Shown here in pieces: positions 33,971 to 38,354 of a stretch of 64,000 nt of DNA. The first letter of the stretch is position 1. Every line of letters starts with the position of its first letter. The position numbers and the translations under genes are program-made. The notes under the pieces are model-generated. The model ran no database searches, was not told where the DNA came from, and worked only from the letters and a program-made list of their open reading frames with translations. Origin of the DNA: Verrucomicrobiia bacterium (GTDB lineage: Bacteria > Verrucomicrobiota > Verrucomicrobiia > Limisphaerales > UBA1319); NCBI GenBank assembly GCA_963664225.1, contig OY760937.1, positions 736,001-800,000 on the forward strand, in the 5' to 3' direction.

Positions 33971-34741
33971 TCAGTCATTGTGATGCCCCGAGACGGTTCC
34001 GCCGGGCTGAGTGACGGCATTCTTCTGTAAGGTTACAGCGGTTTGCGCCAGCGCCCGACCGCTCAGCACTGCGCCGGTGTTCATCGCAACCAATGTTTTG
34101 CACAGAATGATTCCCTTGAAGCTAGCCGTCGTTCCAATGGTCGTTTGGCCGCCGACCTGCCAGAAGACGTTCCTGGCCTGTGCGCCGCCCTTGAGAATAA
34201 TCTGGGCGCCGTTGCCCTCGGTGAGGTTGCCTGCAACCTGGAAGATCCAAACATCATTAGGGCCGCCGGAGAGAGTGACCACAATGGGAATCTGAAGCGA
34301 GCTGCTCCATTTGTAGAGACCCGGAAGGATTGTCATTCCGTTAATATTTCCCGCACCCAGTTCGGTCGCGGTGGGGTTGCTACGCCCGGCGGCGTCGGTG
34401 TAAGCGGTTTGCATGTTGAGGACTGCTGTGGCCAACAAGGCCGGGGCGATGACCGCGCAGGGAGCAGGACCCGCCGCATCGACCGCGTATATTATGCCAG
34501 ACACTTCTGTGCATTTTACAAGGATCGCCGCACCGGTGATAGGGCTGGACCCAATGTTTCCAACAATGGCTGAAGCCGGGACGTCGGTGATTCCGGATTT
34601 CGATAAAATCACGAAATTACCCGCCGATCCGAGTTGGACTGGCGCCGGTCCGCGACCCAGAGTGGCCGCCGTGCCGTAGGAGGGGCTGCAAAGCAGCGCA
34701 GACAGCGCGGCCAACAGAACTAAACTTTTTGTACTTTTCAT
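33971..34741 (-). CDS. Secreted DUF3494 ice-binding-family protein
   Basis: Signal peptide; FVILSKSGIT, AYTDAAGR, PGLYKW, VWIFQVAG, NVFWQVG, GRALAQTAVTL. Confidence 0.92.
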   Translation of the reverse strand: MKSTKSLVLLAALSALLCSPSYGTAATLGRGPAPVQLGSAGNFVILSKSGITDVPASAIVGNIGSSPITGAAILVKCTEVSGIIYAVDAAGPAPCAVIAPALLATAVLNMQTAYTDAAGRSNPTATELGAGNINGMTILPGLYKWSSSLQIPIVVTLSGGPNDVWIFQVAGNLTEGNGAQIILKGGAQARNVFWQVGGQTTIGTTASFKGIILCKTLVAMNTGAVLSGRALAQTAVTLQKNAVTQPGGTVSGHHND

Positions 34742-35093
34742 ATCAACTAACTTTGACTTAGTGCCTTATTGGGGTCACGTCGTCACAATAAGAGCAGCGC
34801 TGGGGCTGTCCATGGGGGGATTCACCCCCTGGCGGCCCCGTCCCAGTGTGGCTGAAAATGGCGATGTGAACGGGTTGCCAGCAGGGGAAGGCCGATGGGT
34901 TTCAATGTGGGAACAGGCTATTTTGTGGGCATTCAGGGGCTGAAACGTGCTTTCAGCCCGTGTCGTGTTTTTGTCCGGTTAACCTTGGACCATTGACCCA
35001 AGCGCAGGGCAAAGTTCTCCTGGAGGAAGGCTGGCGTTTCAAAGCACGGATGGATGACAGGAATCTTCTGGCAACCCCTCCCTCCAGCTCCCT

Positions 35094-35117
35094 TGTATCT
35101 GATTTTCCATCTATTCT
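35094..35117 (+). promoter_or_regulatory. Junction promoter formed on IS110 circularisation
   Basis: Right end TTGCT (36262-36266) + T35094 gives -35 TTGCTT; 17-bp spacer; -10 TATTCT at 35112-35117. Confidence 0.75.
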
Positions 35118-35123
35118 TGTTTT

Positions 35124-35327
35124 GTTTGAAAAGACGGAATAGATGGAACTGTCCTGCCGCCTGCAGGCGGCAGGACAGTGGCGCGAACGAGCTCGCCATT
35201 CCCTGGCATTGGTTTACAGCCAAATGCGTCGGGAGCCAGAGCCGTTCGTGTCTGTGTCCTAAACTCGAACCGTTGCTTGAGCGGCCTACCAAGTCCTGCT
35301 CGTATTTACAAGAAAGAGCCAGAACAC
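35124..35327 (+). ncRNA. Putative bridge RNA of the IS110 element (ends approximate)
   Basis: 5' hairpin 35148-35179; loop 1 has CCATTCCCT/GGGAG (target-like); loop 2 has ACCGTTGCT/TACAAG matching the circle junction ACCGTTG-CT-TGTA. Confidence 0.82.
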
Positions 35328-35328
35328 T

Positions 35329-36255
35329 ATGACCACTATCTACGCTGGCTTGGATATTGCCAAGCTGAGTCTTGATCTCCACCTGGCCGGTCGTTCCCAC
35401 GATCTGCCCAATACCGCCGCCGGTCATCGCCAGCTCGTCGGACTCCTGGCGCAGCATCCGGGCGCTCACGTCATCTGTGAAGCCACGGGCGGCTATGAGC
35501 GTGAGGTGGCTGACGCCCTCCATCATGCCAGCATTCCTGTCAGCATCATCAATCCCGCCCGCGTCCGGCATTTCGCCCGCGCCCAGGGACAACGGGCCAA
35601 AACCGACCGTATTGATGCCGCTGTCCTCTCCGCCTATGGGCAGGCCTTTGCCCCCAAACCCACGCCGGCGCGTTCCGAGGTGGAGGTGCAGTTGACCGAA
35701 CTGGTTCGTCGCCGCAACCAGGTCCTTGAACTGCTCTTTGCCCAACGCAATCAGGCCGAACGCCTCACGCTGCCCAAGTTGCGCCGCCAGGCCCAGAGCT
35801 TGGTGCATCGTTTGGAGCGGGATGTGCAGGGAATCGAAACCCAACTCAAAGCGCTGCGCCAGAAAACCACAGAATTGGATGAGCGCGCAAAGAAACTCGA
35901 GGCTATTACTGGGGTGGGCACAATTACCGCCTTGGCTGTTTTGGCTGAGCTGCCCGAGCTGGGCACGCTCAATCGGGGGCAGGCCGCCGCCTTGGCCGGA
36001 CTGGCTCCACATCCCCGAGAAAGCGGGCAGTGGCAAGGCCGTCGCTCCATCGGTGGCGGAAGAGCCGCCGTTAGACGTGCCCTCTACATGGCTGCCATGG
36101 TCGCTGCGCGCTGCAATCGCCAACTCAAGGAGTTCTACAAACGACTCCGATCGGCGGGCAAGCCCGCCAAAGTCGCGTTCACCGCCGTCATGCGCAAACT
36201 CATTGTTCTGATGAACCAAATCCTCAAAAATCCACATTTTGAACTCTCAAATTAA
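35329..36255 (+). CDS. IS110 DEDD recombinase/transposase, 308 aa
   Basis: GLDIAK, CEATGGYE, KTDRIDA (D-E-D-D); GVGTITA and GLAP...ESG (catalytic Ser region). Confidence 0.96.
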   Translation: MTTIYAGLDIAKLSLDLHLAGRSHDLPNTAAGHRQLVGLLAQHPGAHVICEATGGYEREVADALHHASIPVSIINPARVRHFARAQGQRAKTDRIDAAVLSAYGQAFAPKPTPARSEVEVQLTELVRRRNQVLELLFAQRNQAERLTLPKLRRQAQSLVHRLERDVQGIETQLKALRQKTTELDERAKKLEAITGVGTITALAVLAELPELGTLNRGQAAALAGLAPHPRESGQWQGRRSIGGGRAAVRRALYMAAMVAARCNRQLKEFYKRLRSAGKPAKVAFTAVMRKLIVLMNQILKNPHFELSN

Positions 36256-36551
36256 ATACCGTTGCTCCCCGCTCGTGCCTCGCAGGGCGGGAGAGAAGAT
36301 ATGCGCCCATTCGGTTCACTCGGTTGGTTGGGGCAATTCTCCAGACGTCGGGCGGGGGCACCCGACACGATCAATGACGAACCCCCGTATATACTTTCAT
36401 GGCGTTTCAAGGGTTTTTCCAGTTTGCCAGAGATTTTTGTCCGGCGCCGCATTGACCCGGGCTGGTACGGAGCCGCGGTGTTGGCGATGGGACTTCGGCC
36501 ATAAGATTCACGCGGCGGCACAATGGCGCCGAGGGTGATGATCGAAATGAC

Positions 36552-38354
36552 TTAATCCTCCCAGCCGATTTTGCGGCCCTTGTTTTGCTCTTCCAGCCAG
36601 GACATGAGGGGTTTGAAATATTCGACCATGGCGCGAGTGGAGAGGTCCTCCCCGGTGGCGTCATGGAGGACTTTACGCCAATCCTGGGTGCCGCCTTTTT
36701 CCATGATGCTCTTCAAGAAAGCGCCGGTTTCCTTGCTGTTGGCGTAGTTGCAGGATTGGGGTGGCTGCTTGAGAATGTTGCGCGCGATGTAATCGTTGAA
36801 TTGGAATTTCAGGACGGTTGCCACGGCATAATTGAAGTAATAAGCGGGGGCATCGTTGATGTGGGTCTTGGTGGCGGCGTCGCAATATTCCTCTCCGCGG
36901 TCCGCGGGCGATTCCACGCCCTGATAATCGCGGACGAATTTCCACCAGCGCGCGTTCCACTTTTCCGGAGGCAGGTTTTTGGCATACACCTCGGCTTCCC
37001 AATGTGTGATGGTGCCGGAACTCCAGAAAATGAAGGGAACGGTGTTGGCCAGGGCGTCGTTGAGGAGAAAGGCGGTTTGGTCCACCTGATAATCCTGGGG
37101 CAGCACGCCGACGGTCTTGAGATAGGGGGCCTGGCCGCAGGCCATGGAAATCAATTCGCCCATGCCTTCGTGAAAACCGGTGTTGGCTCCCAACCGGAGC
37201 AGGGGCGGCACTTCAGGGCGGGAATAGGACATGAAATAATAGGCGTGGCCCAATTCGTGGTGGGCTGTTTCAAACCACTGCCAGTTGGGTTCCACGCTCA
37301 TCAGCGAGCGAATGTCACGATCCAGATCGACGTGCCAGCAGGAGCCGTGGGTGTTCTTTTTGCGTGTGGCGTTGGGAGGGAGGGGATAGAGGTCCGATAA
37401 TTTCCAAAAACTTTCCGGCAGGGAAGGGAAGCCAATGCCGGTGTAAAACTTTTCAGCCGTCTTCATGATCCACTCGGGGGACTTGTCCTTGAGGCGGTCG
37501 TCGAAATTCGCGCCTTCGACCAGGCCAACCCAATTCTGGCTCCAGCGGTTATTCAGCCAATGGGCGGGGATTCGATTGGGCACGGGCTGACCGTATTTTT
37601 TGGCGAGTTCATATTTGACCCAGGTGTGGAGTTGCAGATACAGCGGCTTCAAATCCCGCATGAAATCATCCTGGAGACGCAGCATTTCATCGGTGGACAT
37701 GCCATAGCTGGCGACCTGGAGGGTGAAATAGTCATTGAAACCAAGTTCGCGGGCCACGCCGTTGCGCAGCTTTTGCAGTTCAATGAGGCCGGGTTTGAGG
37801 GCGGGGCCGGATTGTTTGGAGGCTTCCCAGACCGCGCGGCGCCCGGCCAGATTGGTGCTGGAGTTGAGAAGATTGTCGATTTCGTTAGCGGTGATGGGCT
37901 TGCCGTCCAATTTAAAAACGAAGGAATTCAAGGTGGAGGCCTGACGTGTTTCGGCGGCAATGCGTTCGGTGGCAAGGGCCGGATTGGTCATTGGGGCCTC
38001 GGCGGCGTTCAAAAGAACCCGTTCCAGCTCAATCACGGTCATGGGTGTTAAATCCTTGCGATCCTTGAGCAATTCGCGGGCCTCCTCGATGATTTTTGGG
38101 TTTCCCGCAAAGGCGGCGCGTGATTTGCCGGCGGTTTCCGAGGCGGCGTCATGCACCGGGGAGACATCGGTGGCGGCCAGCCATTGCGCCTGGCTCTCCA
38201 CGCGATAAACCGCCTGCCAGGTGGCATTGACCAGACCGAGAAATTCAGAGGCGCGTTCCTGAGGTGTCATGGCATGGGTGGGCGGAATCATGGCAAACAG
38301 CATGGATGAAACCGTTGATATCCAAGCGTATCGGAGGATGTGTTTCACACTCAT
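36552..38354 (-). CDS. M2-family (ACE-like) peptidyl-dipeptidase
   Basis: HHELGH zinc motif, GFHEGMGE third ligand, IPAHWL, signal peptide. Confidence 0.9.
   Translation of the reverse strand: MSVKHILRYAWISTVSSMLFAMIPPTHAMTPQERASEFLGLVNATWQAVYRVESQAQWLAATDVSPVHDAASETAGKSRAAFAGNPKIIEEARELLKDRKDLTPMTVIELERVLLNAAEAPMTNPALATERIAAETRQASTLNSFVFKLDGKPITANEIDNLLNSSTNLAGRRAVWEASKQSGPALKPGLIELQKLRNGVARELGFNDYFTLQVASYGMSTDEMLRLQDDFMRDLKPLYLQLHTWVKYELAKKYGQPVPNRIPAHWLNNRWSQNWVGLVEGANFDDRLKDKSPEWIMKTAEKFYTGIGFPSLPESFWKLSDLYPLPPNATRKKNTHGSCWHVDLDRDIRSLMSVEPNWQWFETAHHELGHAYYFMSYSRPEVPPLLRLGANTGFHEGMGELISMACGQAPYLKTVGVLPQDYQVDQTAFLLNDALANTVPFIFWSSGTITHWEAEVYAKNLPPEKWNARWWKFVRDYQGVESPADRGEEYCDAATKTHINDAPAYYFNYAVATVLKFQFNDYIARNILKQPPQSCNYANSKETGAFLKSIMEKGGTQDWRKVLHDATGEDLSTRAMVEYFKPLMSWLEEQNKGRKIGWED

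Follow-up and report, generated by a model that had tools for sequence, protein, structure and literature searches.

A compact verrucomicrobial IS110-group element with a probable IS621-type bridge RNA in its left end

The element and its closest described relatives

The closest described system to the element analyzed here is IS621 of E. coli (Durrant et al. 2024, PMC11208160; Hiraizumi et al. 2024, PMC11208158). In the bridge RNA of IS621, each left guide repeats the top-strand sequence of the left half of the DNA site together with the core, whereas the right guides complement the core and the right half (PMC11208160). The published consensus has a 5' stem-loop, after which come two internal loops, the first variable and the second conserved, and by covariance models reported in the same study a bridge RNA is predicted for 85.7% of the elements in the IS110 group (PMC11208160). 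The roles of the catalytic residues of IS621 have also been described (PMC11208158). In addition, REP-type repeats are used by IS110 elements (work in the reference list of PMC11208160; 10.64898/2026.03.19.712850).

Here, we examined an element of 1,173 bp (35094-36266, with CT on either flank) in a 64-kb window, that is, the whole stretch of verrucomicrobial DNA that was analyzed (64,000 nucleotides; G000:C1:736001-800000). As judged from comparative sequence evidence, it is most likely an intact IS110-group insertion sequence whose 235-nt left end encodes an IS621-type bridge RNA, of which ∼181 nt were modeled (35148-35328); we assign this reading a probability of roughly 0.88. The predicted RNA would consist of a 5' stem-loop (the palindrome described below), a target-binding loop and a donor-binding loop. 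Its donor-loop strands, ACCGUUG-CU and UACA-AG, would recognize the junction of right and left end in the excised circle, and the RNA-bound 308-aa DEDD/Ser recombinase would exchange strands at the CT core, so that the element would be inserted at NNNNN-CT-NNNNN sites selected by the target loop. Expression, RNA-recombinase binding and the chemistry of strand exchange are presumed by analogy with IS621.

The likeness to IS621 extends to the protein architecture and catalytic residues, the placement of the RNA in a long left end together with a short right end, the CT core, the order of 5' stem-loop, variable target loop and conserved donor loop, and the four-guide strand rules (PMC11208160; PMC11208158). 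The initial annotation of this locus had read the loops by these same rules, with left guides identical to the top strand and right guides complementary, in agreement with the published scheme for IS621 (PMC11208160). The donor sequence ACCGTTG-CT-TGTAT is close to ...ACAGTTG-CT-TGTATC in the supplement of PMC11208160, and a 4-bp subterminal inverted repeat (ATAC in the right end, GTAT at 35095-98) corresponds to the ATA/TAT given in that paper. Unlike IS621, the 5' stem-loop here is an exact 32-nt palindrome, and the host is verrucomicrobial. The recombinase has 308 aa, compared with 326 aa in IS621, and is distant in sequence (phmmer E = 1.6e-37), and the target guides deduced from covariation comprise 7 nt on the left and 7 nt on the right, whereas those of IS621 comprise 9 nt and 4 nt, respectively (PMC11208160).

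The features of the locus are listed in Table 1. The left junction reads ...CAGCTCC-CT|TGTATC and the right junction ...ACCGTTG-CT|CCCCGC. A CT core was present at both junctions in all five genomic copies (see below), the noncoding left end (235 nt) contrasts with a right end of 11 nt, and no long terminal inverted repeats could be found. The element ends had been predicted from the window, and they proved to be common to all five copies. A metatranscriptome contig from a relative departs from the element sequence just past 36268. Both IS110 Pfam domains were detected in the ORF (PF01548, E = 1.6e-19; PF02371, E = 3e-20), and residues D9, E51, D93, D96 and S232 were aligned opposite D11, E60, D102, D105 and S241 of IS621. 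The only PDB sequence matches obtained with phmmer were IS621 (8wt6, E = 1.6e-37) and the second solved relative, ISCro4 (9t56, E = 3.6e-37), whose chain has 341 residues against 308 aa here. The earlier description of an intact, compact recombinase is thus upheld by the open reading frame, the alignment of the catalytic residues to IS621 and a second copy of 100% identity in the genome. In the full-text literature on IS110, bridge RNA and Verrucomicrobi, no paper naming this subfamily was found. The 14-nt donor junction was absent from the readable part of the supplements of PMC11208160, which may still describe the subfamily.

Table 1 Features of the element and of its predicted bridge RNA (positions in the window)
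Feature	Position	Strand	Evidence or details
Occupied target, left half: REP-like repeat of the genome, ending in the CT core (35092-93)	35065..35093	+	
Noncoding left end, 235 nt, opening with the right-donor bases TGTATC	35094..35328	+	TGTAT[CG] start in 5/5 copies and in relatives
Hairpin 1 (CCATCTATTC.../...GAATAGATGG), between donor end and modeled RNA, outside model R1	35106..35147	+	Fold
Predicted 5' stem-loop of the bridge RNA, perfect 32-nt palindrome with centre CCTGCAGG	35148..35179	+	Covariation
Predicted target-binding unit	35180..35253	+	Outer stem 35180-89/35243-52 and 35191-94/35239-42; inner hairpin 35206-35227
Predicted left target guide CCATTCC-CT; effective portion ATTCC-CT (35198-35204)	35196..35204	+	Flank covariation
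Predicted right target guide UCGGGAG, complement of CT-CCCGA	35229..35235	+	Flank covariation
Candidate handshake bases CC of the target loop, the first C being a possible partner of donor G7	35236..35237	+	Inference only
Predicted donor-binding unit	35254..35327	+	Outer stem GUGU/ACAC, CU/AG, CUC/GAG; inner stem 35279-85/35294-35301
Predicted left donor guide ACCGTTG-CT, equal to right end and core	35269..35277	+	Sequence identity
Predicted right donor guide UACAAG, complement of CT-TGTA (core and left-end start)	35307..35312	+	Sequence complementarity
Recombinase gene, 308 aa, the sole long ORF of the element	35329..36255	+	PF01548, PF02371, IS621 alignment
Right end, 11 nt past the stop codon: left donor ACCGTTG (36258-64) and CT core (36265-66)	36256..36266	+	
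Right half of the target repeat (CCCCGCTCGTGCCTCGCAGGGCGGGAGAG...)	36267..36297	+	

Structure of the leader and its conservation

All strings and stems quoted in the initial annotation could be located at their coordinates: CCATTCCCT (35196-35204) and GGGAG (35231-35235) in the target loop, ACCGTTGCTTG (35269-35279) and TACAAG (35307-35312) in the donor loop, and the outer stem GCGAACG/CGTTCGT (35183-89/35243-49). The inner stems are also as described (GCATT/AATGC and GAGCGG/CTGCTC, the latter with one G-U pair), and the 32-nt reverse-complement palindrome at 35148-35179 is perfect. The 181 nt upstream of the ORF comprise the 5' stem-loop, the target-binding unit and the donor-binding unit. 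Folding of 35095-35335 gave -103.5 kcal/mol (z = -7.25), and none of 200 shuffled sequences was as stable. When folded alone, the target-binding unit had a z of -5.05, and the donor-binding unit was no stabler than its shuffles (z = -0.19). An Rfam scan of 34500-36800 (E ≤ 10) revealed no family at the gathering threshold; all 11 matches were far below it, and these sub-threshold matches were hairpin look-alikes of the 5' palindrome. The additional hairpin at 35106-35147 is kept in close relatives, where RNAalifold indicated some compensatory pairs.

Homologous elements were collected in several ways. A contig scan of genomes identified nine loci, all in Verrucomicrobia-type assemblies except one that was otherwise labeled, and a protein search of 401 genomes of the phylum gave matches at E ≤ 1e-40 in 24 genomes, the own genome included. 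In a metagenome scan, 543 of 597 candidate stretches were confirmed, and the best 80 (49-79% identity) were retained. A covariance model, R1, with 181 positions and 53 pairs was built from eight leaders, its structure (5' stem-loop, target unit and donor unit) being specified by hand. At E ≤ 1e-20, a single full-length sense match to R1 directly 5' of the ORF was observed in 75 of 75 sources, so the layout of a 5' stem-loop and then two stem-loops that contain large internal loops is conserved across orthologues.

In the R1 alignment, 94.9% of cells were paired, compared with 76.2% in shuffles and 34-40% with slid partners; it should be noted that the alignment was fitted to the model and is biased toward the structure, a concern that the slid-partner control meets in part. 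Changes on both sides, that is, compensatory ones, were found in 42 of the 53 pairs. They affected all 14 pairs of the 5' stem-loop (98.6% of cells paired), 11 of 14 pairs of the target outer stem (helix 2) and 9 of 9 pairs of the target inner stem (helix 3). The donor unit was mostly invariant, with both-side changes only in helix 4 (three of four pairs) and in three distal pairs of helix 7. The leader layout is that of the published consensus and is supported by this covariation of the stems.

Guide strands, element ends and insertion sites

For the donor loop, the left guide matched the right end and core at nine of nine positions, and the right guide matched the core and the start of the left end at six of six. 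This agrees with the earlier proposal that the left donor strand equals the circle-junction sequence and that TACAAG is the reverse complement of CT-TGTA. The 9-mer ACCGTTGCT occurs three times in the window, compared with 0.45 expected, and two of these occurrences are the right end and the loop strand. Among relatives, the right end is ACCGTTG-CT wherever it could be located, except for one variant end (L089), and the left end starts with TGTAT. The donor ends hardly vary among relatives. In most relatives the right donor guide is GCAAG rather than ACAAG, pairing being kept via a G:T wobble. Opposite the core, the left donor guide has CT here (35276-35277) and AT, CC, TT or AA in relatives; in the relatives with these other bases, the element end is still CT.

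The target loop could be compared directly with host DNA. The 79 best sense rows of the first cmsearch were used, loop strands and flanks being taken per row; the flanks were positioned from the conserved ends TGTA[TC] and CCGTT[GC], without reference to the target loop. Rows without a flank were left out for the arm concerned, and L035 and L081 were left out of the right arm, which resulted in 54 unique left and 47 unique right guide/flank pairs belonging to 34 and 33 guide classes, respectively. In the leaders of L035 and L081, the right target guide is lost through an 11-nt deletion, and the ORF is still open in both. At positions 3-7 of the left guide, cognate pairs agreed at 3.88 of 5 positions, compared with 1.95 ± 0.18 after shuffling, and the five non-core positions of the right guide agreed at 4.33 of 5, compared with 1.64 ± 0.19; in neither arm did any of 10,000 shuffles score as high, although these permutation figures overstate the support and are indicative only, because the relatives share descent, even if the effect is large. 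The target loop thus covaries strongly with the flanks in homologues, and the result that would have counted against the initial annotation, a lack of covariation between loop and target, did not occur.

No target signal could be observed at left guide positions 1-2 or right position 8 in this test, and the target is therefore read as 5+CT+5 in these elements. Accordingly, the 9-mer that had been named as the left target strand is retained for 35198-35204, whereas its first two bases (CC, 35196-97) had no target signal; on the right, GGGAG lies where it had been placed (35231-35), but the effective strand is 7 nt (35229-35235) rather than 5. A left-guide register using GAGCTCG was rejected, because GCTC/GAGC is a covarying stem (GTTC/GAAC in relatives). 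The suggestion that the system is potentially reprogrammable is supported for the target loop only, where natural variation has placed 34 left-guide classes on one scaffold; the donor loop shows no variation in step with its donor in these elements.

We also looked at the bases adjoining the guides with the published concept of handshake pairing in mind (PMC11208158). In the target-loop alignment of relatives, a C follows the core-binding AG in every intact row, and G occupies donor position 7 in all cases in which a right end was identified, with the exception of one variant end. By analogy, the first C at 35236-35237 could form such a pair with donor G7. For the AA that follows the right donor guide, pairing to target positions 6-7 is seen in variant B (TT; see below), but not in variant A (CC), and no family-wide covariation of handshake bases was apparent by eye across the aligned relatives.

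The DNA search revealed five full-length copies in the own genome, which fall into two variants. Variant A comprises the window copy and a second copy of 100% identity, and variant B comprises three copies of 92-94% identity. All five have CT|TGTATC and ACCGTTG|CT at their ends, and their donor-loop strands and ends are identical. In variant A, the left guide is CCATTCC-CT, the right guide reads CT-CCC, and the sites are ..GCTCC-CT-CCCC and ..GTTCC-CT-CCCT. In variant B, the left guide is TTTCCTT-CT, the right guide reads CT-CCT, and the sites are ..TCCTT-CT-CCTG (twice) and ..CTTC-CT-CCTC. The two leaders differ at 19 of 235 positions, and the differences are concentrated in the guides (10 of 13 non-core guide positions vs 9 of 222 others; Fisher p = 2e-10). 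At the third base to the right of the core, both A sites carry C and all three B sites carry T, which fits G and A, respectively, in the guide. The two variants may conceivably represent a natural retargeting by a 2-nt deletion and a 2-nt insertion that shifted the guide register. In copy c4 of variant B, the left guide matches its flank at two of five positions; CAATTCCCTCCC and CCATTCCCTTCC, which lie 30-60 nt upstream of this copy (L004), are near-perfect variant A predicted targets. The other variant B copies, c3 (G000:C1 1738419-1739591) and c5 (3172066-3173224), look decayed, one having an internal TAG stop in the recombinase gene and one being 18 nt shorter. A second IS110 family is also present in the genome, with five copies that are ∼70% identical over parts (for example, G000:C1 2332285-2333289; L006-L010). 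Its target loop is TTCCAAT-CT, reading CT-GCCGTA, and agrees with the flanks at 4-6 of 7 left and 7-8 of 8 right positions.

With regard to genomic context, the window copy was inserted in one of ∼26 copies of a REP-like palindromic repeat. Its right flank is found at 25 additional genomic positions, and many of these have the same ...C[AG][AG]CTC[CT]-CT-CCCC site unoccupied. The repeat (CCCCTC[CT]CTCC..CTC[CT]CTCCCCGCTCGTGCCTCGC.GGGCG.GAG) is scattered across the genome and occupies 35065-35093 and 36265-36297 of the window. Insertion into such a repeat resembles ISPpu10 and other REP-inserting IS110 elements (10.64898/2026.03.19.712850); the other four copies of the genome were inserted in other sequences. 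The flanks of many relatives are of a CCCTC...GGGGCGAGGG palindrome type. The best variant B site, the 12-mer TCCTTCTCCTGG (the variant B target with one mismatch), occurs dozens of times in the genome. In one run (G000:C1 about 5625040-5625729), its copies follow one another at intervals of ∼134 nt, suggestive of a tandem array or of another repeat family.

Alternative explanations and significance

It is conceivable, though unlikely, that the bridge-RNA element is genuine and that the variant A copy is functionally impaired or silent, persisting as a passenger. Of the 10 non-core positions of the variant A guides, only 6 and 7 match at the two insertion sites of this variant (plus two and one possible wobbles, respectively), against a mean guide-flank match of ∼8.2 of 10 among relatives, and the genome contains no exact copy of the predicted variant A target, only 23 one-mismatch sites, which are unoccupied. 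Moreover, no sigma-70-like promoter could be identified on the + strand of the integrated copy, and the computed junction of right end and left end contained no promoter-like site at 8/12 or better; both searches were based on the E. coli consensus, from which the promoters of this phylum may deviate. A candidate promoter, TTGCTT-17-TATTCT, was discarded, as it reached only 7/12 and was not kept in distant relatives.

Two metatranscriptome runs, in which ∼5% of sampled words were present, yielded three contigs that span only 35506-35960 and 36169-36268, none of them over the leader, and such contigs are no proof of transcription. Among the joints listed for the RNA runs, none corresponded to the circle junction. 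A joint that skips the element (35091->36265; runs X3 and X4) was rejected as a sign of excision: its likeness is 85%, and the simplest explanation is a paralogous empty copy of the REP-like repeat. What argues against impairment is that the two variant A copies are 100% identical at different sites, which implies recent movement, that the ORF and the catalytic residues are intact, and that the donor loop fits the ends perfectly. Besides, the promoters of the phylum may escape a search with the E. coli consensus, and off-target and half-match insertion has been reported for IS621 (10.64898/2026.08.31.748434).

Another possibility is that the leader functions at the DNA level, or as a 5' UTR in cis, for example through sub-terminal recombinase-binding repeats or translational control, and that the matches to ends and flanks are protein-DNA sites. 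The left donor strand directly copies the right end, as a repeated protein-binding site would, and the 5' palindrome behaves like a palindrome at the DNA level, G-U pairs making up 1.3% of its paired cells. However, the two target-unit stems make frequent use of G-U pairs (13.1% and 8.7% of paired cells), which points to RNA rather than DNA. In each loop, one strand is identical and the other complementary to the DNA, as in the IS621 scheme, and hypervariable host flanks are tracked by the loop, which would be unexpected of protein sites. Considering also that the closest solved relatives are RNA-guided, we regard this explanation as very improbable. That the matches merely reflect chance similarity within a structured leader can practically be dismissed: each match is only 5-11 nt long and pyrimidine runs of low complexity make up the targets, but none of 10,000 permutations equaled the cognate pairing, the A/B differences are concentrated in the guides (p = 2e-10), and the donor 9-mer is found three times against an expectation of 0.45.

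While the bridge-RNA reading is retained for the leader as a whole, the 5' palindrome may conceivably be more than an RNA stem-loop, although we consider this doubtful. The 5' stem-loop was found in 59 distinct versions, and in 36 of these it is an exact reverse-complement palindrome, including the self-complementary centre (TGCA, GGCC or GCGC), and an exact palindrome of 30 or 34 nt was present at the same place in 2 of 14 more distant loci; the sequence itself varies widely among relatives (alignment A5, columns 1-34). If the hairpin acted only as RNA, G-U pairs and a loop that lacks palindromic symmetry should be tolerated, and for this reason the near-exact DNA symmetry stands out. The low G-U share and the symmetry suggest that both DNA strands, or else a self-complementary duplex, are under selective constraint. 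The palindrome may form a hairpin that acts in a single-stranded DNA circle intermediate; alternatively, it may mediate the pairing of two bridge-RNA molecules within one synaptic complex.

Overall, the element is very probably an ordinary, well-supported addition to the bridge-RNA system described in 2024, and the known picture of bridge recombinases is unchanged. It adds a compact verrucomicrobial orthologue (308 aa, 1.17 kb) to the bridge-recombinase family, in which the putative guide geometry, a 12-bp target of 5+CT+5 and a long right guide, is legible from natural variation. In addition, the co-resident variants A and B, with different target loops on the same scaffold, would provide a natural guide-swap pair for tests of programmability.
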